From: Candidatus Latescibacterota bacterium
GTDB lineage: Bacteria > Krumholzibacteriota > Krumholzibacteriia > WVZY01
Length of the DNA: 64,000 bases
Assembly (NCBI GenBank): GCA_963791045.1
Contig: CAWBQK010000001.1
Location: 128,001-192,000 of the forward strand
Reading direction: 5' to 3'
Made by a program: the position numbers and the translations under genes. Shown here one piece after another: positions 11,595 to 20,679 of this stretch; the stretch's first letter is position 1, and each line of letters starts with the position of its first letter. The notes under the pieces were generated by a model that ran no database searches, had not been told where the DNA came from, and was given only the letters and a program-made list of their open reading frames with translations.

Positions 11595-12470
11595 TCAGAA
11601 CGCATCCATGACGTCACGAATCAACTCTTCGATTGTTTCCGTGTATTCGAGAATGAACTTCTTCATCTCCTTGGAATCGAGATCGTTCCGGTTGTCATAC
11701 AATTGCTGATGCCCTTTGGCAATCTTGCGGAGAATTTTTCCGTAGGCTCGGGCGGCGCCCCGTTTCGCGTCGAGCGTCGACTCTTCCTTTTGCCACAGGT
11801 CATAGACAAGAACGGCTGCAAGCGGCTCTTCTTCTCCCCCCGTTTTTACTTTTCCTAGAAAGTATTTCCGCGCCGCTTCACTTTCGCGATCGAGGAGCCG
11901 CAGGTAGTCCTCGCTAACGACATCATCGAGCATGGTGGTCAAAACCTGGATGTCGTCGTTGGTCCGCTCAATGGCTTTGCCCAGTTCGCTCCTCCGCCAA
12001 CCTCCGCCGGCGACTTCGACCAGGAAACTCGACACACCTTCGACGGCCTCCACCCGGCGTTCGTCGAACGGGTACGTATCCCCGAAAGCGTCAGCCAGGT
12101 CGTCAAACTCGTCGTCGTAATCCAGCGTTTTCTTATCGGCCAGTTTCGAAAGGGCCTTCAAATAGTCGACAAGGACACGGTTGGTTTTGCGAAGGCCTTT
12201 CGCCGCTTTCTTATAGTCTTTGCAGGCAGAGCCGCCGGCGACGCGAAGCGAGTCGAGGGTTGGATCAGACACGGAGAGACCTTGATAATACTGCTGGCGA
12301 ACACACGATCGGCTTATGTCTTTTTGGATACCGGCAAACTGTTCGCTCGCCGTCTTCGAGACCCCCGCATACCTCTTGACGGTGGTGGGAGCGGTGCAGC
12401 CGCTCGCGAAGAGAGCGGCGACGAGAACAATAACCGACACACCCAAAAATTTTCGTTCATTCTTAATCAC
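11595..12470 (-). CDS. Hypothetical helical lipoprotein (~291 aa)
   Basis: GAGGTG RBS before GTG 12470; signal peptide with lipobox ASGC; amphipathic helical body. Confidence 0.75.
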   Translation of the reverse strand: MIKNERKFLGVSVIVLVAALFASGCTAPTTVKRYAGVSKTASEQFAGIQKDISRSCVRQQYYQGLSVSDPTLDSLRVAGGSACKDYKKAAKGLRKTNRVLVDYLKALSKLADKKTLDYDDEFDDLADAFGDTYPFDERRVEAVEGVSSFLVEVAGGGWRRSELGKAIERTNDDIQVLTTMLDDVVSEDYLRLLDRESEAARKYFLGKVKTGGEEEPLAAVLVYDLWQKEESTLDAKRGAARAYGKILRKIAKGHQQLYDNRNDLDSKEMKKFILEYTETIEELIRDVMDAF

Positions 12471-12619
12471 GATTTTCACCTCGATATCTCGGGGTGCGGA
12501 AAACCTGGATGATGAACGGGAGGTGTCTGGGCTGTCGAGAGGGTCTCGTGCACCGACCGATGAAGGAGCTTCTACTCCTCTCGATTGTAAGACACACCGC
12601 CCTCCCGTGTCCATGCGGT

Positions 12620-12649
12620 TTGACTTGCCTGCCCCCGGTGGTCTATCTT
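12620..12649 (+). promoter_or_regulatory. Putative sigma70 promoter for the amrS operon
   Basis: TTGACT-N18-TATCTT. Confidence 0.55.
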
Positions 12650-12697
12650 TAGGACGAAGGTTCGGGTCGTGACGGGTCTCGAAACGGGCGGCTTCAC

Positions 12698-13972
12698 ATG
12701 TCCATTCTGAACGATTCGTTTTCAAAAGACCGGATGACGGCATCGGTGACGCGGCGCCGGTTTCTCGGGATCCTCGCGCGGTCGGCCGCTGTCGCCGGTG
12801 GCGCGGGCTTTCTCATAAACTCCCCGAATATCCCGAAGGCCATCGCCGCTAACTCGAGTTCGTCCACCGCAAAACTCAATCCAGCCGACGCGCCGCTCGC
12901 CAGATACTGGATCTCGTCGAACTCACGCGGCATCGACTGCTTGTCGTGTCATACGACCGATGACAACGTGGCCGGCGACCTCTTCGATCACGGCAAGGCC
13001 GTCATCAAGTGTGAGCTTTGCGCGCAAGCGTGCGTTATCCCTGAAGGAGAACGCGGTGAATGCCGCGCGCGGATGAATGTGGGCGGCACGCTGCGGAGCC
13101 TTGTCTACGGACGTCCCGTTTCCGTCCATGTCGATCCCATCGAAAAAAAACCGTTTTATCATTTCATGCCGGGCTCGGCCGCGTTCTCGATGGCGACCGC
13201 GGGGTGTCCGCTCCACTGCAAATTTTGTCAGAACTGGGAAATCTCCCAGTCGCGCCCCGAGGATTTCAACACCGAGTTCGTACCGCCCGACGCAATCGTA
13301 CACGAGTCGCTCAAACGTAACGCGCCGGTAATTGCTTTCACATATAACGAGCCGACGGTATTTACGGAGTACCTGACCGATATCGCGCGGCTCGCCCGCG
13401 ACGACGACATCAAATGCGTACTGATCAGCTGCGGGTTCATGAACGAGAAACCGCTCGACGAAATGTGTTCAGTACTGGACGCGATCAAGATAGATCTCAA
13501 AGGATTTGACAAGGAGTTCTACCGGCGAGTGTGCGGCGCCGAACTGGACCCGGTGTTGAGGAGCATCAAACAGGTTGCGAAGAGTGGGATCCATCTCGAG
13601 ATTGTCAACCTCGTCGTGCCCACGCTGAACGACTCCGATGAAATGCTCACGGGACTGGCGAAATGGGTGGTGGATGAGGTGGGTCCGGATGTACCCATCC
13701 ATTTTACGCGATTCCACCCCGATTATCAGATGCTTAACCTGCCGCCGACTCCGGTGGCGACACTCGAGAAAGCGTACGAGATCGCGAGGGACCAGGGTGT
13801 TCATTATCCGTTCGTGGGCAATGTTCCCGGTCACGAGGGAAATAACACCTATTGTCCACAGTGCGGCCAACCGGTCGTCTCCCGAAAAGGATTTTTTGTG
13901 TCGGATATTAGAATCGAAAATGGGCACTGCACGCAGTGCGGCGAAACCATCGCGGGGGTTTGGACGGATTGA
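12698..13972 (+). CDS. amrS: AmmeMemoRadiSam system radical SAM enzyme with Tat signal (start 12698 or 12734)
   Basis: CELC-x3-C N-terminal ribbon, VDPIEKKPFYHF, CxxxCxxC (GCPLHCKFCQNWEISQ), FTYNEP, C-terminal CPQC/CTQC; N-terminal TRRRFL. Confidence 0.93.
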   Translation: MSILNDSFSKDRMTASVTRRRFLGILARSAAVAGGAGFLINSPNIPKAIAANSSSSTAKLNPADAPLARYWISSNSRGIDCLSCHTTDDNVAGDLFDHGKAVIKCELCAQACVIPEGERGECRARMNVGGTLRSLVYGRPVSVHVDPIEKKPFYHFMPGSAAFSMATAGCPLHCKFCQNWEISQSRPEDFNTEFVPPDAIVHESLKRNAPVIAFTYNEPTVFTEYLTDIARLARDDDIKCVLISCGFMNEKPLDEMCSVLDAIKIDLKGFDKEFYRRVCGAELDPVLRSIKQVAKSGIHLEIVNLVVPTLNDSDEMLTGLAKWVVDEVGPDVPIHFTRFHPDYQMLNLPPTPVATLEKAYEIARDQGVHYPFVGNVPGHEGNNTYCPQCGQPVVSRKGFFVSDIRIENGHCTQCGETIAGVWTD

Positions 13973-14034
13973 CCGCTCGTCCGCGAAAAGCCAGCGAGGG
14001 TGGCTCACGAGAGAGGTTCACGAAAGAGGCTCGA

Positions 14035-15582
14035 ATGCGAGGCAGTAATATTTCTTTGGTCCGCTTTTTCTGTGTGATGGCGATCGCCATTTGTGTTGTG
14101 GGCTCTTCCCCACCCGGGGCGAAATCGTCGCGCGGCGGCGTCCGGCATCCCGCCGTGGCCGGACAGTTCTATCCATCGGATCCCGTCAAACTTGGGTACT
14201 CCATCGACGCTTTTCTCGATGACGCGCTCGAGCGGTTCGACGAAAAACCCGTAGCGATCGTGTGTCCGCATGCCGGTTACATTTACTCGGGGCAGATCGC
14301 CGCCGACGCCTACAAACAGGCGTCGAAACACAGCTACGATCTCGTCGTCATCGTGGGCGTTAATCATACGACGGGCGGGTTCCGGGACGTTTCAATTTAC
14401 GACGGCGAGGGTTACAAAACCCCGCTTGGAATCGCGGAAATCGACGCGGAGCTTTCCGCCGGACTCATCGCGGCGGACAACGACTTTGTGTTCAACAAAA
14501 AAGTCCACGAACGGGAACATTCTGTCGAAGTCCAGATCCCATTTATACAGAGGATCTTTCCCGCGACTCCCGTTGTTGCGGCGATCGTCGGCACGACGGA
14601 ACCCGAGCTGTGCGAGAAATTCGGCCGCACACTCGCCGGCATGCTAAAGGACAGGAACGCACTCATCGTGGCGAGCTGCGACCTGTCTCACTTCCCCCTC
14701 TACGATGACGCCGTCGAAGTCGACAAAAAGACGCTTGAAGCTTTCTCCACTATGGAGACAAGCGTCGTGCACTCGACTATCGAAAAACAAATGTCGCGGG
14801 GGGTGGCCAGCCTTTCGACATGCGCCTGTGGAGAAGCGTCTGTTCTCGCCGTCATGACCGCCGCCCGCGAGCTCGGCGCCGACGGCGCGCAGATCATCAG
14901 CTATGCAAATTCCGGCGACAGCCCCGTGGGAGACCATTCGCGTGTTGTCGGCTATGGGGCGGTCGCGTTTGTCAAAGGCGGCGAATCGGCCGAGGTTCCG
15001 CCGCTTCGAAACCCCCAGGACGGTGGCAAGACGGAATTCAGCGAAGATCAGCGGGAGGCGCTTCTCAAGTTCGCACGCAAGACCATTCGCCAGTATCTCA
15101 CCGGAGGGACGGCGCCGCTCGCGCGGGGATTCGATCCGGTGGTCGAAACAAACAAGGGCGCTTTTGTCACCCTCAAGAAAGACGGCGATCTGCGCGGTTG
15201 TATCGGCCACATGATTGACGATCTCCCGCTGTCGCAGGTTGTCGGGTATTGCGCGCTGCAGGCGGCGTTCAACGACCGCAGGTTTTCGCCGCTCGAACTC
15301 GGCGAACTCGATGACATCGACATCGAAATCTCCGTTCTAACGCCTTACGAACAAGTCGACGGTCATCGCGATATCAAAATCGGACGCGATGGCGTTCTTA
15401 TAAAAAAGGACGGCCGGTCGGCCGTGTACCTCCCGTCGGTCGCCGTAGAACAGGGCTGGACACTCGAGGAAACCCTCACCCACCTGTCGCGAAAAGCGGG
15501 ACTCCCCGGTGACGGCTGGAAGGAAGGAACGACGTTTTACACATTCCAGGCGATCGTGTTTGGCGAGGTCGAGACCCACTAA
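14035..15582 (+). CDS. amrB: AmmeMemoRadiSam protein B (MEMO1) - protein A (AMMECR1) fusion
   Basis: PAVAGQFYP, PHAGYIYSG, EHSVEVQIPF, DLSHF, CG, VVGY (MEMO), then GAFVTL, LRGCIG, DRRF, EISVLT, YLPSV (AMMECR1). Confidence 0.93.
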   Translation: MRGSNISLVRFFCVMAIAICVVGSSPPGAKSSRGGVRHPAVAGQFYPSDPVKLGYSIDAFLDDALERFDEKPVAIVCPHAGYIYSGQIAADAYKQASKHSYDLVVIVGVNHTTGGFRDVSIYDGEGYKTPLGIAEIDAELSAGLIAADNDFVFNKKVHEREHSVEVQIPFIQRIFPATPVVAAIVGTTEPELCEKFGRTLAGMLKDRNALIVASCDLSHFPLYDDAVEVDKKTLEAFSTMETSVVHSTIEKQMSRGVASLSTCACGEASVLAVMTAARELGADGAQIISYANSGDSPVGDHSRVVGYGAVAFVKGGESAEVPPLRNPQDGGKTEFSEDQREALLKFARKTIRQYLTGGTAPLARGFDPVVETNKGAFVTLKKDGDLRGCIGHMIDDLPLSQVVGYCALQAAFNDRRFSPLELGELDDIDIEISVLTPYEQVDGHRDIKIGRDGVLIKKDGRSAVYLPSVAVEQGWTLEETLTHLSRKAGLPGDGWKEGTTFYTFQAIVFGEVETH

Positions 15583-15600
15583 CCCACAGAGAGAATTCCG

Positions 15601-17760
15601 GTGATTCTTTTTCTCTTCTCTATCGGTCTCATTTCTATCCTCGGCCAGGTCGTCATCCTTCGTGAGCTGAACGTTGCTTTCTACGGCGTCGAACTTATTT
15701 TTATCCTCGCCATGGGTGTGTGGCTGTTGTGGACGGCCCTCGGTGCGCTTGCCGGACGACGCAATTATTCTCCGGCGGCGCACGTCGTCGAGTGGTTGTT
15801 TGTCTGTTTCGCCGTTCTACTGCCGCTCGATATCGCTTTTATCCGTTCGATGCGTGATATCTTCGGCGCCGTTCCCGGCACGTATTTGCCATTCGGCTAT
15901 CAGTTGCTGGGGGTCGTGATCGCGCTCTTCCCGCCGGGAATACTTCTTGGCCTCCTTTTTCAATGGGCGGCAAAACGGTATGCGGCGGACGGCGGAACGC
16001 TCGCGACCGCATATGCCGTCGAAAGCGCGGGCGGGCTTATCGGAGGTCTTGCGTCGACACTTCTCCTCCAAACCGGCGTGTCCAATTTTTCCGCGGCACT
16101 CGTGTGCGGTCTTGCCGCCACGGTGACAGTGGTCGCCGCCCCGGCGAGCGGTCGTTCGCGCACAAGAATCGCGGGCCTGATCGTGTTTGCCGCCCTGCTG
16201 GTATTGGTATTTACCTCGCGGCAAATCGATCATACCTTGACACGCATCACTCACCCTTCGCTGGTCGACTCGAAAGACTCGCCGTACGGCAGAATCTCGA
16301 TAGAGGAACACTCGGGACAGTATATCGTTTTTGAAAACGACGCGTTTTCATTCGACACCGAGGGCGCGGGGAGCGAGGAACTCGTCCACCTGGCCGCGAT
16401 CCAAATCGACTCTTTGAGCGATGTGCTCGTCCTCGGGGGCGGGCTCGACGGCACGCTCCGCGACCTCTTGAAACACAATCCCCGGCGCGTCGATTTTGTC
16501 GAAATTAATCGCATCCTTCTCTCGGCCATCGACGCGAATCTCCCCCCCGGCTTAATCGAGCCAATGCACCCTCCCTCGGTGTCGACGACCATCGAGGATC
16601 CACGGCGCTACGTGGACAGGCCGGGTCGATATGATCTCATACTCGTGGGGATGCCCGACCCCGCATCGGGGCAGTCAAACCGCTTTTACACACGTGATTT
16701 TTTTGAGCAGTGCGCCGAGGCGCTTCGCCCAGGCGGCGTGCTCGCCTTCCGCCTCCGCTCTCCCGAGAATATCTGGACCCCCTTTGTCACTTACCGGAAT
16801 TCGAGTATTTTCAACGCGCTCAAAATGGCATTTGTGGATGTCGTCGTACTCCCCGCCAGCGCAAATATTGTCATCGCGTCGATGGGCCCGCTCGATCGCG
16901 ACCCGCTTCGTCTGTCCCGGCGCCTCGACACGCTCAACATCACAACCAATTTAGTCACAAGCCAATACGTCAATTACCTCTATACAAATGACAGGTTTAC
17001 AGGGATCGCCGAGAGGCTCTCTTCGACCGACATTCCGGCGAACACCGACCTGCGGCCCATCTGCTACCGGTTCACCGGTATGATCTGGCTGTCGAAATTC
17101 CTGCCCGGTATGATCCACGCGGATATCCGTGGCGACACATCCGCATCGATTCCCCGCCGCGCGGCGATCATCCTCGCGGCGGTTCTCGCGATCGTTTTCC
17201 TCCTCGTGAAACGCCACCAGGGATTGCGAAGGGTCACGCTGGTTGCTGCGGCGGGTTTTCTTGCGATGGTGATGGAAACGGCGTTCATCCTTTATTACCA
17301 GTCGAAGTGCGGGGTGCTCTTCCAGAATATTGGCATCCTCATTATGATGTTCATGGCGGGGCTCGCCGTTGGCGCCATTTCTATCCGTTTCTTGATGGCG
17401 AACAAAAATATCCCGCGACCGATATCCGGGCCGAAGATTGGAATCAGCCTTTTTGGCGGTTTTGCCGTGGTGAATCTGCTTTTTTGGATCGGTTTGCGGC
17501 TTGGCCTCCCCACAAATCTCTCCTCGATTTCATTTTTTCTCTTTGGCGCCGGGTTTCTCGTTTCCGGTGTCTTCGCCTGGATGAGCCTCGACGGTGTTGA
17601 CGACCAGCGGCTCGTCGTTTCCCCGCTCTATTCCGCCGACCTTCTTGGTGGGTGCGTCGGATCGCTCGCCGCCGGCTTGTTTCTGATTCCATTCCTTGGA
17701 ATCGAACTCTCCACGGGGACCGTCGCGGTCTTGTCCGCCTTGTGCCTGCTGCTCATCTGA
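15601..17760 (+). CDS. Polytopic membrane protein with central spermidine-synthase-like SAM-binding domain
   Basis: GQVVILREL, YAVESAGG, DSPYGRI, VLVLGGG, YDLILVGMPDP-NRFYT, C-terminal LYSADLLGG. Confidence 0.85.
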   Translation: MILFLFSIGLISILGQVVILRELNVAFYGVELIFILAMGVWLLWTALGALAGRRNYSPAAHVVEWLFVCFAVLLPLDIAFIRSMRDIFGAVPGTYLPFGYQLLGVVIALFPPGILLGLLFQWAAKRYAADGGTLATAYAVESAGGLIGGLASTLLLQTGVSNFSAALVCGLAATVTVVAAPASGRSRTRIAGLIVFAALLVLVFTSRQIDHTLTRITHPSLVDSKDSPYGRISIEEHSGQYIVFENDAFSFDTEGAGSEELVHLAAIQIDSLSDVLVLGGGLDGTLRDLLKHNPRRVDFVEINRILLSAIDANLPPGLIEPMHPPSVSTTIEDPRRYVDRPGRYDLILVGMPDPASGQSNRFYTRDFFEQCAEALRPGGVLAFRLRSPENIWTPFVTYRNSSIFNALKMAFVDVVVLPASANIVIASMGPLDRDPLRLSRRLDTLNITTNLVTSQYVNYLYTNDRFTGIAERLSSTDIPANTDLRPICYRFTGMIWLSKFLPGMIHADIRGDTSASIPRRAAIILAAVLAIVFLLVKRHQGLRRVTLVAAAGFLAMVMETAFILYYQSKCGVLFQNIGILIMMFMAGLAVGAISIRFLMANKNIPRPISGPKIGISLFGGFAVVNLLFWIGLRLGLPTNLSSISFFLFGAGFLVSGVFAWMSLDGVDDQRLVVSPLYSADLLGGCVGSLAAGLFLIPFLGIELSTGTVAVLSALCLLLI

Positions 17761-17934: not shown

Positions 17935-18705
17935 ATGAGTAACCCACTTGATAGCACACCGACGCTGAGTCGTGTGCCGGCAAGTCTCGATGTAACACAG
18001 AGCATCACGGGGCTAGTCCTCGCGCTCTTTATGTGGGCTCACTTGCTTCTCGTCTCGAGCATATTGCTCGGCAAGGACGCCATGTACTACGTGGCTGGCG
18101 CGTTCGAGCTCAAATTTCTCACCGGATGGCAGCACGGATACCCGATTATCGTTACGATAATCGGGATAATTGTTTTTGCCCTCTTTATCGTTCACGCGGG
18201 GATCGCGCTGCGGAAGTTCCCTGTCTCCTGGAAACAGTACCGGATATTCCGGCACCAGATGGGGATGATGAAACACCAGGACACAAACCTCTGGTTCTGG
18301 CAGGCGCTCACGGGCTTTGTCATGTTTTTCCTCGGTTCGGTTCACGCCTACATAATGATCACCAATCCGGAGAAAATAGGACCGTATGCTTCGGCCGACC
18401 GTTTTGTAACCGGATGGATGTGGCCTCTCTATTTCTTGCTGTTGTTTGCCGTTGAGATTCATGCGGCGGTCGGGGTCTACCGGCTCGCGGTCAAGTGGGG
18501 CACGTTTGACGGAAAAGATCCGCGCAAAAACCGGAAGCGACTCAAGGTTTTCAAAAACGCGCTGACGACTGTATTTCTTATTATCGGCCTCATGACATTC
18601 GCCGCGTATGTAAAAATTGGAATCGAACACAAAGACAGGGCGGGCGAGCGATACTCACCCGCGGGACATTCATCGGCTTTGCTGGACCGAGGTGATATCG
18701 GATGA
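17935..18705 (+). CDS. frdC: Fumarate reductase dihaem cytochrome b subunit (type B)
   Basis: [49 protein letters not shown]; four haem-ligand His. Confidence 0.92.
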
Positions 18706-20679
18706 AAGTCGTCTATACGGATTCATTGGTGATTGGTGGCGGACTGGCGGGTCTCCGTACGGCTATCGCCACAAAAATGAGGGGGCTCGACACAATCGTT
18801 CTCTCGTTGATCCCCGCAAAACGTTCGCATTCGGCGGCCGCGCAGGGTGGAATGCAGGCGAGCCTTGCCGCCGCGATCAAGAGCGAGGGTGACAACGAAG
18901 ATGTCCACTTCTCCGACACCGTCAAGGGGAGCGACTGGGGATGCGACCAGGATGTAGCGCGGATGTTTGCGCAGTGCGCACCCAAGGCGGCACGCGAGTT
19001 GTCCGCGTGGGGCGTTCCCTGGACGCGCGTCCGAAGGGGTCCACACCAGGTGATCATCAATGCGGAAAAAGTCACAATCAATGAAAAAGATGAGGCCCAC
19101 GGGCTCATCACAGCCAGGGATTTCGGTGGAACAAAGAATGGCGAACCTGTTACACCGCGGACGGCACCGGACACACAATGCTGTATGCGATGGACAACAA
19201 AGGCAATCGAACTGGGGATCCCCGTCCACGAGCGCAAGGAAGCCATCGCGCTGATCCATGACGGCAAGACAGTGTTACGGCGCCGTGGTCCGCGACCTCA
19301 TCACCGGCGAACTCATCGCTTATGTGTCAAAAGCGACCACCATCGCGACCGGCGGCTACGGCCGGATCTATTCCGTGTCGACAAACGCCGTAATCAGCGA
19401 AGGCATCGGATGCGCGATCGCGCTCGAAACCGGCGTCGCCGCCCTGGGCAACATGGAAGCGGTCCAGTTTCACCCGACGGCAATCGTCCCGGTGGGAATT
19501 CTCACCACCGAAGGATGCCGCGGTGACGGCGGACTGCTCAAGGATGTGGATGGTTACCGGTTCATGCCGGATTACGAACCCGGAAAGAAAGAGCTGGCCT
19601 CGCGTGACGTGGTATCGCGGCGGATGACCGAGCACATGAGAAAAGGCAAGGGTGTCCCGTCGCCATACGGAGGATCACCTCTGGCTCGACATCACCCTTC
19701 TCGGCAAGGAGCACATCGAAAAGAACCTCCGCGAGGTCAAGGAGATCTGCGAATACTTCCTCGGCATCGACCCTGTGACCGAGTACATCCCCGTCCGTCC
19801 CACGCAGCATTATTCCATGGGTGGGATCCGAACCGACCACACCGGTATGAGCCGTCAGCTCGACGGACTTTTCGCCGCGGGCGAGGTGGCATGTTGGGAC
19901 ATGCACGGATTCAACCGGCTTGGCGGCAATTCGGTTGCCGAAACGGTTGTCGCCGGGATGATCGTCGGTGAATTCGTCGCCGACTACTGCGAAGGCGCCG
20001 ACATGTCGACATTCCAACCTCGTTGGTCGAGAGATTTCGTCAAGCGCGAGGAAGCCAAGATCACCGATATTATAAACAGATCGAGCGGCGAAGACGTTTA
20101 CGAACTCAAAGAGGCCATGCAGCAAATCATGATGGACAAGGTCGGGATTTTCCGCAACGGAACCGATCTCGACCCAAGCCGTCGATGAACTCGAGGCGCT
20201 CGTCGCGCGAAGCCGGAATGTCGCGATACAAAACAAGATTCGCTCGTCCAATCCCGAGCTTGTCGATGCGATCCGCGTCCCGATGATGATCAAGCTAGCC
20301 GCTTGTGTCGCGGCGGGCGCATCCGCGCGAACGGAGAGCCGAGGCGCGCACTTCAGAGAAGACTATCCGGAACGAAACGACCGGGACTGGCTCAAACGCA
20401 CCCTGTCGATCTGGAAAAACGAGGGTGACAATCTGCCCGACGCTCGAGTATGACGATCTCGATATCATGAAAATGGAGATGCCGCCGGGCTCGCGCGGTT
20501 ATGGCGGCGCCACAATAATCGATCACCCGGACACCGAAAAAAGGGTCCAGCAGGTCGAAGAAATCAAGAAAGCGAACCCGAACGCCGACCGGTTCGAGAT
20601 CCAGAAGGCGCTTATGCCGTACGATCTTCCCGAAAAATACAGGGGCAAAAACGAGCGGATAGGAGTTGGTTTCGAATGA
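18702..20679 (+). CDS. frdA: Fumarate reductase flavoprotein subunit (about 6 apparent frameshifts)
   Basis: [56 protein letters not shown] and [10 protein letters not shown] found in successive frames; shifts at ~19138, 19200, 19270, 19672, 20173, 20439. Confidence 0.9.

Follow-up and report, generated by a model that had tools for sequence, protein, structure and literature searches.

A stretch of 64,000 nucleotides from the genome of a Candidatus Latescibacterota bacterium (the window) carries a three-gene variant of the AmmeMemoRadiSam system that probably resides outside the cytoplasm, as read from its sequences and from structure models. Canonical AmmeMemoRadiSam systems, the function of which is unknown, are treated as cytoplasmic. 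The variant consists of a radical SAM enzyme (AmrS), a fusion of the Memo and AMMECR1 proteins (AmrB-AmrA), and a large membrane protein.

12698..13972, forward strand: amrS paralogue, an AmmeMemoRadiSam-type radical SAM enzyme of 424 aa (open reading frame list and TIGR04337)
14035..15582, forward strand: amrB-amrA fusion (Memo + AMMECR1), 515 aa from the ATG at 14035, in open reading frame 13936..15582
15601..17760, forward strand: MFS-fold membrane protein of 719 aa with 14 predicted helices and a spermidine-synthase-like domain inserted between helices 7 and 8

The NCBIfam models for AmrS, AmrB, and AmrA all score above their cut-offs. AmrS is extended at its N-terminus by about 100 aa, and from near residue 101 it has a core that identifies it as the radical SAM enzyme of an AmmeMemoRadiSam system (TIGR04337, 369.7 bits; cut-off 220). 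Its radical SAM domain (residues 167-315; PF04055, 74 bits) contains the CX3CX2C motif of the superfamily, and its AF2 model has a mean pLDDT of 87.6. The seven cysteines C105, C108, C112, C122, C170, C174, and C177 are all invariant in an alignment of 56 sequences.

13010..13228, forward strand: N-terminal Cys motif C105-x2-C108-x3-C112...C122 and radical SAM motif C170-x3-C174-x2-C177 of AmrS

The fusion protein lies 62 bp downstream of amrS, in the adjacency typical of AmmeMemoRadiSam genes, and combines in one reading frame a Memo domain (196 bits; TIGR04336, 234.1 bits, cut-off 26) with an AMMECR1 domain (173 bits; TIGR04335, 165.2 bits, cut-off 99). The third reading frame starts 18 bp past its stop codon. 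A first-pass annotation had described these three genes, their two signal-like N-termini, and the 18-bp gap, all of which agree with the present analysis. The spermidine-synthase-like domain that it had recognised in the 719-aa protein likewise matches PF01564 (61.1 bits; cut-off 22.9).

Both soluble proteins start with segments that resemble export signals.

12698..12850, forward strand: Tat-type signal of AmrS (n-region, T-R-R-R-F-L-G, h-region, c-region ...PKAIA/A)
14035-14124, forward strand: Sec- or lipoprotein-like signal of AmrB-AmrA

Judged by sequence and comparison, AmrS bears a conserved twin-arginine signal. The arginine pair (nt 12752-12757) stands in T-R-R-R-F-L-G, which is followed by a hydrophobic region of about 18 residues and ...KAIA/A, on inspection the pattern of a Tat substrate; the N-terminus reads ...MTASVTRRRFLGILARSAAVAGGAGFLINSPNIPKAIA/ANSS. 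The twin-arginine motif, hydrophobic stretch, and AIA-A site had thus been correctly reported. R19 and R20 are invariant in 56/56 aligned homologues from several phyla, F22 is conserved in at least 90%, and the RR pattern fits 108 of 120 AmrS homologues, with 10 of the 12 misses starting inside or after the hydrophobic region. A relaxed Tat-like pattern with a hydrophobic stretch occurs in just 41 of 10256 stop-to-stop frames of at least 120 aa in this genome. Because the pattern is this rare and R19 and R20 are invariant, the signal is more than a chance resemblance. The Rieske Tat signal model UCR_Fe-S_N matches the N-terminus below threshold only (E 0.077). The export proposal would have been weakened by loss of the RR motif in close homologues, where it is in fact kept, or by true starts downstream of the signals; possible start codons lie upstream of them, both candidate ATGs of AmrS (12698 and 12734) preceding the RR motif.

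AmrB-AmrA likely starts at ATG 14035, behind the ribosome-binding site aaagagg, with the N-terminus MRGSNISLVRFFCVMAIAICVVGSS..., and the same kinds of evidence assign it a Sec- or lipoprotein-type signal. The N-terminus of AmrB is hydrophobic in 21/21 assessable loci with a signal-bearing AmrS, as seen by eye also in the 18 phylum loci where its sequence was viewed, and lipoprotein-like signals such as LFPAGC and LVPGC are frequent on partner AmrB proteins. The same genome provides a control: its canonical AmrS (contig C13) has only 23 residues ahead of the Cys motif and no signal, and a second AmrB-AmrA (contig C4) begins MTDPFRVRKPAVAG, also with no signal.

Comparison across loci shows that the three genes form a cassette and recur as a unit. 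Our survey comprised 81 rows (79 loci from genome contigs, this window, and L001), with counts taken after hand correction of five rows. Pairing of a signal-bearing AmrS with a signal-less AmrB was never found, and both signals were present in all 21 assessable pairs. The membrane protein was encoded in the fetched flank of 26/53 loci with a signal-bearing AmrS vs 3/23 without a signal. The co-occurrence of Tat-type AmrS, signal-bearing AmrB, and the membrane protein, which the first-pass annotation had proposed as a check, therefore holds across loci. The exceptions are L018, L048, and L054, where a membrane-protein gene and a signal-bearing AmrB accompany an AmrS without a signal. Gene order (AmrS, AmrB-A, MFS) is kept in all 16 phylum loci with long enough contigs and recurs in L003, L004, and L006; the genes flanking the cassette show no conservation.

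The third gene is predicted to encode an MFS-fold transporter with a nucleotide-binding-type, spermidine-synthase-like domain in the outward loop that joins helices 7 and 8.

16219..17148, forward strand: predicted outward-facing spermidine-synthase-like domain (residues 207-516) and predicted AmrS docking site

The AF2 model of the 719-aa protein (mean pLDDT 88.8, pTM 0.89) has 7 + 7 long helices. In VIA-align it matches VMAT2 (9kqa) at Z 25.7 (rmsd 3.4, 326 aligned), VAChT at 24.8, SotB at 23.7, and some 40 more MFS entries at Z of at least 18, which assigns the MFS fold to what is a predicted model. No Pfam or NCBIfam MFS model matches the protein at E 0.01 or better. Foldseek relates the inserted domain to 1uir (E 1.3e-12), in keeping with its PF01564 assignment. 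MFS termini are cytoplasmic, and together with the MFS fold this places the loop after helix 7 outside. In the family alignment, loops on the far membrane side hold a mean of 17.7 K+R vs 4.8 on the domain's side. The side of the SAM-binding domain, which had been left for a topology check, is thus predicted to be the outer one.

These observations bear on a reading without export, in which the N-terminal segments tether enzymes that stay in the cytoplasm to the inner side of the membrane, or the starts lie downstream, and the spermidine-synthase-like domain faces the cytoplasm. Such an arrangement is improbable, even though radical SAM enzymes are, as far as is known, cytoplasmic, as are SAM and low-potential reductants, a GTG (codon 91) would in principle allow an AmrS of canonical length, and the three exceptional loci pair a signal-less AmrS with the membrane protein. 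The assembly, 81% complete, encodes TatA twice but yielded no TatC, which is present in 5/5 relatives with the same AmrS type. Other proteins of this genome, a Rieske protein and ApbE among them, bear Tat-like signals too. Homologues from different phyla keep the protein sequence from the RR motif through the hydrophobic region to the start of the core, which shows that this part of AmrS is translated. The distribution of K+R and the 7 + 7 helices of the MFS fold place the domain on the outer side, lipoprotein-like signals are frequent among the AmrB partners, and the CxxCH motif of AmrS (see below) would be useless in the cytoplasm. An export signal and a heme motif on AmrS, an exported partner, and an outward SAM-type domain together suggest that the chemistry of the three-gene system probably takes place outside the cytoplasm.

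Complex modelling, another check suggested at first pass, places the outward domain on mature AmrS with ipSAE values of 0.88, 0.88, and 0.89, against 0.00 for the best of three controls. The runs share at least 98% of contacts, and the partners have pLDDT values of at least 88. The ipSAE mark used is reached by 116/157 solved complexes and 2/215 mismatched pairs, counts that are only rough for our own alignments, which were not paired by genome. The modelled interface includes AmrS residues 179-185, directly after the CX3CX2C motif, and loops 388-393, 450-465, and 499-506 of the domain. We know of no solved complex of this kind. On these models and signals, we consider export and docking, as proposed here, somewhat better than an even bet.

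Docking over the face beside the CX3CX2C loop might also be expected if the outward domain were a protein substrate of AmrS, modified or activated as pyruvate formate-lyase (PFL) is by PFL activating enzyme, the closest relative of AmrS in sequence (TIGR02493, 62.5 bits) and in fold (3cb8). The likelihood of this is very small: the interface loops contain no invariant glycine or other obvious target, the invariant residues lie elsewhere, and many AmmeMemoRadiSam systems, including the second one of this genome, lack this membrane protein.

If the domain is instead a binding partner of AmrS, its ligand might be an adenosyl compound. GGGDGG and the Asp of the D-x-x-D-P loop, which we take to be the catalytic and decarboxylated-SAM-binding residues of spermidine synthase, are not retained: in this domain, GGGDGG has become GGGLDG, EID has become EIN, and VD.SDP has become VGMPDP. 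Across 22 family sequences, the catalytic Asp position is occupied by N in 12, G in 4, S in 2, D in 2, and A in 1. NCBIfam equivalog models all fall far below their cut-offs on the 719-aa protein. The loss of the catalytic Asp argues against the membrane protein ‘finishing the modification’ by aminopropyltransferase chemistry. Nucleotide-binding features are kept in the family (GGG loop in 15-18/22, E301 in 19/22, D333 in 22/22), and its invariant residues are E259, D333, R335, N360-R361, D345, and N481-x-D483-x-x-P486.

It is conceivable, if rather doubtful, that the transporter has no SAM role at all and instead moves or presents a substrate or product of the pathway (polyamine-like, lipid-linked, or another envelope molecule), with the domain binding that substrate or merely anchoring AmrS. 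The closest folds are the amine and drug antiporters VMAT2, VAChT, SotB, and NorA; spermidine synthases bind amines besides decarboxylated SAM; and the catalytic Asp is mostly replaced. However, the GGG loop, E301, and D333 are nucleotide-binding features, the model sets the domain on the AmrS face beside the cluster-binding loop, and an exported radical SAM enzyme needs SAM outside, with no other transporter gene conserved in the cassette. Of the earlier proposal of periplasmic radical SAM chemistry assisted by this protein, the export part is favoured by each computational test run, and the roles given to the membrane protein, in supplying or recycling SAM or in completing the modification, are conjectural.

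The N-terminal extension of AmrS also contains, past the signal and ahead of the radical SAM core, an insert about 25 residues long. The first-pass annotation had seen the signal and missed the invariant CxxCH that follows it.

12917..12997, forward strand: clade-specific insert, about residues 74-100 of AmrS, with C81-x-x-C84-H85 and H98 (candidate heme c site)
12938-12952, forward strand: C81-L-S-C84-H85 of AmrS
12989-12991, forward strand: H98 of AmrS, candidate second axial His

This insert bears on the electron supply of a periplasmic radical SAM enzyme. C81, C84, and H85 are invariant in 56/56 AmrS sequences, and the second His stands at position 98 in 51 of these and at 96 or 97 in the rest. 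In the wider set, CxxCH is present in 120/120 homologues, each with a further His 9-16 residues on, and RR and CxxCH occur together in the AmrS of 20/20 fetched phylum genomes. The insert lies 7 to 24 residues ahead of the four-Cys motif; neither the canonical paralogue L001 nor L006 has it. Literature searches found no description of an exported AmmeMemoRadiSam system with a CxxCH insert.

There is roughly an even chance that the CxxCH...H insert is a heme c site for electron entry. A CxxCH motif on a polypeptide with an export signal is the sequence pattern of c-type cytochromes, and here the motif lies downstream of the Tat signal. Cytochrome c maturation is encoded by a Ccm cluster (CcmA, CcmB, CcmC, CcmE, and CcmF) on contig C11. 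PF01578 is found in 4/4 out-of-phylum genomes with the CxxCH motif; within the phylum, its presence in 206/208 genomes sets so high a baseline that co-occurrence with CxxCH cannot discriminate. It is unusual for heme to be attached to a protein that Tat exports in folded form. Radical SAM clusters also need electrons of very low potential, and periplasmic hemes may fall short of it. Predicted twin-arginine signals are among the features reported for split-Soret cytochromes c (PMC4429474).

An exported and docked AmrS might otherwise use CxxCH...H to bind a non-heme metal, either a structural Zn or, through extra iron-sulfur ligands, a cluster near C105, C108, C112, and C122, and receive its electrons from another partner. 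This seems a less probable assignment than heme, though one consistent with the position of the insert just before the four-Cys motif of an iron-sulfur enzyme. It would also suit the fact that Tat substrates fold ahead of export and are then awkward targets for heme attachment, and the results for cytochrome families, none of which reaches threshold on the insert (DUF1924 E 0.09, PSCyt1 E 0.13, NapB E 0.21). Nevertheless, the His right after the second Cys, invariant in all 120 homologues, is a signature of covalent heme and needless for a Cys-based metal site. The predicted export would, moreover, bring AmrS to the side of the membrane on which Ccm works, and the neighbourhood of the cassette has no conserved gene for a dedicated redox partner. 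Sister clades without the insert bear other electron-transfer modules: among cluster representatives, FMN_bind + Fer4_5 (NosR/NapH-like) is fused to AmrS in P0124, P0143, and P0139, FMN_bind alone in P0131 and P0135, and DsbD_2 in P0125, P0130, and P0139. Such fusions to modules of the trans-membrane electron-transfer type point to a need for electrons on the outer side of the membrane.

Taking the heme c reading together with export and docking, a mechanism can be outlined. AmrS would fold with its iron-sulfur clusters in the cytoplasm before Tat export, and AmrB-AmrA would be exported by Sec. Ccm would link heme by covalent bonds to C81 and C84, a few residues ahead of the N-terminal Cys cluster, and H85 and H96-98 would serve as its axial ligands. 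Outside the membrane, the active-site face of AmrS would dock on the outward domain of the transporter, which would hold an adenosyl compound beside it and perform no aminopropyltransferase reaction. SAM is made in the cytoplasm, so the MFS protein might export it, or might re-import 5'-deoxyadenosine and methionine; to our knowledge, no SAM exporter of this kind has been described. Electrons for reductive SAM cleavage would, in this clade, enter through heme c, and AmrS, with Memo and AMMECR1, would handle an envelope or periplasmic molecule. The complete picture, a self-contained periplasmic radical SAM machine in which a Tat-exported AmrS with a bis-His heme c is reduced by the periplasmic cytochrome pool and receives SAM from a dedicated MFS exporter clamped on its active face, is tentative and, taken whole, rather unlikely. 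If true, it would be without precedent in three respects, as radical SAM chemistry outside the cytoplasm, as a radical SAM enzyme with heme c, and as a bacterial SAM exporter, and would place the Memo/AMMECR1 substrate in the cell envelope.

The variant shares with canonical AmmeMemoRadiSam systems the adjacency of its genes and the invariant N-terminal Cys motif, CX3CX2C motif, and C-terminal CxxC pairs of AmrS. It differs in the Tat signal and CxxCH insert on AmrS, the signal on AmrB-A, the added MFS partner, and a TIGR04337 score of 370 bits, compared with 646 bits for the canonical AmrS of the same genome. Clustering at 50% likewise sets this AmrS clade apart (602 bits to its own representative, 403 bits to the next). 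PFL activating enzyme (3cb8, 3c8f) is the best solved fold match of AmrS (Foldseek E 4.7e-15, TM-score 0.82 on the target) and its sole PDB sequence match (E 1e-07). Unlike AmrS, it is a cytoplasmic protein of 245 aa that lacks a signal, an N-terminal Cys domain, a heme motif, and the C-terminal CxxC pairs. The cassette encodes no glycyl radical enzyme.

The outward domain resembles spermidine synthases (PF01564; 1uir, 6qmm, 1inl) in its fold over residues ~220-475, glycine loop, E301, and D333. It departs from them in retaining the Asp in only 2/22 sequences and in being inserted in the outward loop of a 14-helix MFS transporter. PRK03612, a membrane-fused form of spermidine synthase, scores 98 bits over residues 3-391, short of its cut-off of 472. 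Both six-helix halves of the transporter superpose on those of VMAT2 (9kqa), VAChT (8zmr), SotB (6kki), and NorA, at Z 25.7 to 20 with about 330 residues aligned over 1-719. Its two extra central helices are shared with 14-helix MFS transporters of the DHA2-type arrangement; the 310-residue enzyme-like domain between them sets it apart.

Split-Soret cytochrome c, which also holds an Fe-S cluster, has no sequence relation to AmrS, a radical SAM enzyme that bears the candidate heme motif as a short insert. What the two have in common is CxxCH and a predicted twin-arginine signal (PMC4429474). The NosR/NapH-type (FMN_bind + Fer4_5) and DsbD/CcdA-type modules, which are fused N-terminally to AmrS relatives, have no counterpart in this cassette, and in this clade the CxxCH insert may take the place of such NosR/NapH- or DsbD-type electron modules.

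Three open reading frames on one strand occupy positions 12698-17760 of the window:

12698..13972 (+), ORF 1, amrS: 424 aa, AmmeMemoRadiSam-type radical SAM enzyme AmrS (TIGR04337, 369.7 bits; cut-off 220)
from the likely ATG at 14035 (+), ORF 2, amrB-amrA: fusion of Memo and AMMECR1 (TIGR04336, 234 bits; TIGR04335, 165 bits), with aaagagg ahead of the ATG
15601..17760 (+), ORF 3, membrane protein gene: 719 aa, starting 18 bp past ORF 2 (PF01564, 61 bits)

The first-pass annotation had described AmrS and AmrB-AmrA as proteins with signal-like N-termini, followed closely by the 719-aa frame. The open reading frames, the sequence and the profile matches agree with that description in every detail. 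The N-terminus of AmrS reads ...SVTRRRFLGILARSAAVAGGAGFLINSPNIPKAIA/ANSS, its RR motif lies downstream of both candidate ATGs, and the TIGR04337 match starts only at residue 101. A start further downstream, at the GTG of codon 91, was rejected because the residues upstream of it are conserved as protein. AmrB-AmrA, read from ATG 14035, begins MRGSNISLVRFFCVMAIAICVVGSS..., which places 37 residues ahead of the Memo core motif AGQFYP.

The twin-arginine motif is a conserved property of this type of AmrS, as the earlier claim of export would have it. The best 120 homologues are 61-77% identical and have the whole N-terminal extension in common; their source names include Acidobacteriota, Thermodesulfobacteriota, Latescibacteria, Zixibacteria, Neomarinimicrobiota and Desulfobacterales. 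The pattern RR.[hydrophobic]2 is present in 108 of the 120, and R19 and R20 are invariant in an alignment of 56 sequences. Of the 12 homologues without the pattern, 10 are short gene calls that start in the hydrophobic region or beyond it, one reads KR instead of RR, and the last differs by its long N-terminus.

AmrS N-termini were surveyed more broadly in 81 rows, comprising 79 contig loci, the window and L001, the canonical AmrS paralogue of the same genome. A script classed 36 as Tat-like, 12 as otherwise hydrophobic, 28 as without signal and 5 as unassessable. Inspection by eye found an RR motif and a weak hydrophobic region in four loci classed as having none (L004, L005, L016 and L044). 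At a further locus, L034 (4820-5480), a separate frame directly ahead of the core encodes the membrane helix of AmrS and its first, canonical N-terminal strand, probably because of a frameshift or because the gene is split. After these corrections, 53 loci have a signal and 23 do not.

Wherever AmrS bears a signal and the pair is assessable, AmrB bears one as well (21/21 pairs); the combination with a signal-less AmrB does not occur. Lipoprotein-like AmrB signals (LFPAGC, LVPGC, IPLGC) are frequent. Both proteins are without signal at L051 and, by eye, at L069 and L078. At L053 a single reading frame runs from the C-terminus of AmrS straight into AmrB, and no signal separates the two. The examined flank contains a homologue of the 719-aa protein at 26 of the 53 signal-bearing AmrS loci versus 3 of the 23 signal-less ones, figures in which a missing gene does not equal true absence, as many flanks end at contig ends. 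Of the proposed co-occurrence of Tat-AmrS, signal-bearing AmrB and the membrane protein, the AmrS-AmrB pairing and the enrichment in the flanks stand, and three loci depart from it. These are L018, L048 and L054, where AmrB has a signal, AmrS has none and the gene for the membrane partner is present. A detached signal piece upstream of AmrS was sought at these three loci and none was found; L034 has one.

Within the phylum, AmrS of the window's type, defined by a CxxCH motif ahead of the radical SAM core, scores at least 500 bits in 26 of 208 genomes, including the window's own. Coverage extended to 20 of the other 25 (all except G147, G096, G093, G097 and G098). RR and CxxCH are both present in 20/20, and AmrB is the next gene on the same strand in 20/20. 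The order AmrS, AmrB-AmrA, membrane protein holds in all 16 phylum loci on long enough contigs. No conserved redox or cytochrome gene was found outside the cassette, the neighbours at L003, L004, L006 and in the window being mutually unrelated.

The CxxCH motif lies in an insert. In canonical AmrS (L001), about 9 residues separate the strand ARYW from the strand entering C105-x2-C108-x3-C112; the window's clade has about 25 extra residues at the same place, containing C81-x-x-C84-H85. These three residues are invariant in 56/56 aligned sequences, and CxxCH is found in 120/120 homologues. A second His, which lies 9-16 residues past H85 in all 120 homologues, falls on position 98 in 51 of the 56 aligned sequences and on 96 or 97 in 5. 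The signature of heme c attachment is CxxCH on a polypeptide that is exported, so it is this motif that suggests a cytochrome in AmrS; the second His might serve as distal heme ligand. Tat substrates do not usually carry heme c, and the potential of such a heme may fall short of what a radical SAM cluster demands. Searched alone against Pfam and PDB sequences, the insert gave matches below threshold, mostly to cytochromes. The AF2 model of AmrS has a pLDDT of 87.6 (77-84 for residues 71-100), and Foldseek matched it to radical SAM cores, with no match for the N-terminal part. Co-occurrence with cytochrome c maturation says nothing here: PF01578 is present in every one of the 26 phylum genomes that have a CxxCH-type AmrS, but equally in 206 of the phylum's 208 genomes as a whole; the 4/4 out-of-phylum genomes of this type that have it are too few to weigh. 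At L010 (2381-3604), on a contig labelled Chloroflexia, a CxxCH-type AmrS has a further C-H pair nearby (…CGDCH…YCH…), which suggests that the number of candidate heme sites varies.

Other AmrS lineages have different N-terminal additions. After clustering at 50% identity, the CxxCH clade collapses to approximately one representative (602 bits), with the next at 403 bits. Of 150 representatives, 85 begin with the short N-terminus of the canonical type, 23 with a Tat-like one, 4 with a hydrophobic one and 14 with a long addition; in 16 of the other 24 no core motif could be recognised, and 8 were left unclassified. FMN_bind and Fer4_5 (NosR/NapH-like) occur together at the N-terminus of P0124, P0143 and P0139, FMN_bind only at that of P0131 and P0135, and DsbD_2 at that of P0125, P0130 and P0139. 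One protein, P0139 (1055 aa), has all three domains. NosR/NapH-like and DsbD-like modules carry electrons across the membrane or at its outer face. We take their fusion to AmrS as independent support for a site of action outside the membrane, with a demand for electrons on that side. Where sister clades have such added modules, the CxxCH insert may be the electron supply of the window's clade.

The third gene product was modelled with AF2 from a 22-sequence alignment (pLDDT 88.8, pTM 0.89). Seven long helices (2-204) come first, then an alpha/beta domain (about 221-475, with helices up to residue 513), and another seven helices (516-718) complete the chain. When the model was compared with 48,161 chains using VIA-align, MFS transporters matched over its full length: VMAT2 (9kqa) with Z 25.7, rmsd 3.4 and 326 residues aligned, VAChT with Z 24.8, SotB with Z 23.7, and NorA, OxlT, ENT1 and others with Z of at least 18. 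Spermidine synthases matched the inserted domain (Z 22-24.6). Foldseek on the whole model returned spermidine synthases only, the MFS fold being seen only with VIA-align. Together, the AF2 helices and the VIA-align matches indicate that the predicted structure is that of a 14-helix MFS protein with an enzyme-like domain between two extra central helices.

This fold bears on the side of the membrane on which the SAM-binding domain lies. The termini of MFS proteins are cytoplasmic, and the loop past helix 7 would therefore be outside. Independently of the fold, family-averaged K+R is 17.7 in the loops predicted inside versus 4.8 on the domain's side, so that both lines predict an outward-facing domain. 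Its nucleotide-binding features are largely retained across the family (GGG loop in 15-18 of 22 sequences, E301 in 19/22, D333 in 22/22). At the position of the aminopropyltransferase Asp, the family has N in 12, G in 4, S in 2, D in 2 and A in 1, the window's protein having G, and a set of invariant residues is proper to the family (E259, R335, N360-R361, N481, D483 and P486). Because that Asp is not conserved and the family has invariant residues of its own, identification as a spermidine synthase was not adopted.

The coupling of AmrS to this protein, proposed on first reading, is also supported by structure prediction. A complex of membrane protein residues 207-516 and mature AmrS residues 56-424 gave ipSAE values of 0.88, 0.88 and 0.89, with at least 98% of contacts common to the runs and partner pLDDT of at least 88; of three controls, the best scored 0.00. 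For calibration, 116 of 157 solved complexes and 2 of 215 mismatched pairs attain the ipSAE mark, counts that are rough for custom alignments. We know of no solved complex of an AmrS with a spermidine-synthase-like domain, and recall from a known structure is therefore unlikely. The model supports, short of demonstrating, binding at an AmrS interface formed by residues 141-147 (the DPIEKKP region), 179-185 (right after CX3CX2C), 216, 341-355, 376-379 and 397-402. The CxxCH insert is absent from the confident contacts and would therefore stay free for a redox partner. Docking fits the Tat signal on AmrS, since the domain is predicted to lie outside.

The same genome also carries AmmeMemoRadiSam genes without signals:

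C13:265217-266263, C4:171786-173297 and C6:80208-80873, signal-less AmmeMemoRadiSam set spread over three contigs

These genes serve as an internal control for the signals in the window. The canonical AmrS (646 bits) has 23 residues ahead of its Cys motif, the other AmrB-AmrA fusion, on contig C4, begins MTDPFRVRKPAVAG and has no signal, and a lone AmrA lies on contig C6. The canonical AmrS and the C4 fusion point to two sets in this organism, a cytoplasmic-type set elsewhere and the signal-bearing set in the window. The neighbours of the canonical AmrS gene are glyoxalase/HPPD-like, homogentisate-dioxygenase-like and amidohydrolase genes rather than AmrA or AmrB.

With regard to export and maturation, the genome has two copies of TatA and a Ccm cluster; searches for TatC (PF00902, TIGR00945) and for ResB found neither in the assembly, which is 81% complete. 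TatC is present in 5/5 more complete relatives having the same AmrS type. Tat-like signals also occur elsewhere in the genome, on a Rieske protein, ApbE, a molybdopterin-domain protein, a metallophosphoesterase and three aldo-keto-reductase/ferredoxin fusions. The last are paralogues (C1:207217-208443, C1:210287-211519 and C9:288484-289707; L086, L087 and L090) that combine the signal with an aldo-keto-reductase domain and a C-terminal 4Fe-4S dicluster domain.

Two further observations concern the flanks of the cassette. Divergent from amrS, the frame 11595-12743 (-) has no Pfam or NCBIfam match, and in its longest version some 110 residues precede a signal of lipoprotein-like type (…VLVAALFASGC); the longest start overlaps that of amrS by 46 bp, and the true start is therefore probably further in. 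Downstream lies another recognisable gene:

17935-18705, fumarate reductase cytochrome b gene (NF010072, 339 bits)

The flavoprotein subunit expected beside it, at 18702-20293 (+), is apparently spread over three overlapping frames (18702-19526, 19258-19971 and 19652-20188), which could reflect frameshifts or assembly errors.

Sequence features, conservation and gene linkage, together with the predicted folds, topology and complex, form the computed basis for a mechanism. Its steps, from the export through the attachment of heme, the transport of SAM and the path of the electrons to the nature of the substrate, are our inference. In the reading we favour, AmrS would be exported and dock on a dedicated MFS transporter, which would move SAM outward or cleavage products back in. 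Electrons would reach AmrS through heme c, and AmrS and the exported Memo-AMMECR1 protein would act on an envelope substrate. Weak points of this mechanism include a heme potential that may not be low enough, a cytochrome assignment drawn from the motif only, the TatC missing from an incomplete assembly and the three loci with a signal-less AmrS beside the membrane protein.

As far as we know, strict confinement to the cytoplasm is the standard view of radical SAM enzymes, which depend on SAM, on an electron donor of very low potential and on protected clusters. A system found in several phyla appears to meet all three needs outside the membrane, through Tat export of the folded enzyme, a dedicated transporter with a SAM-type domain, and a heme motif or, in sister clades, NosR-/DsbD-like modules. 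Such a system would widen where radical SAM chemistry can occur. AMMECR1 and Memo are conserved up to humans, and we know of no biochemical function for either; they gain a concrete handle here. For the variant predicted to be exported, the substrate should lie in the envelope or periplasm. Exported AmrS could be followed by heme staining, and the predicted complex offers a defined interface for mutation. The papers searched contained no account of an exported radical SAM enzyme, of AmmeMemoRadiSam localisation or of the 719-aa membrane protein family. Burroughs et al. 2019 reportedly describe Memo-AMMECR1 systems, and that account may bear on the neighbourhood claims.

AmmeMemoRadiSam is itself a known, uncharacterised kind of system, and the CxxCH insert is the feature that is new here. 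The inserted domain of the membrane protein shares the fold and the nucleotide-binding features of spermidine synthases, without their catalytic Asp. Modules of the NosR/NapH and DsbD types are fused to AmrS in sister clades, and in the window's clade the CxxCH insert may stand in for them. Among c-type cytochromes, the split-Soret type has likewise been reported to have a predicted twin-arginine signal (PMC4429474).
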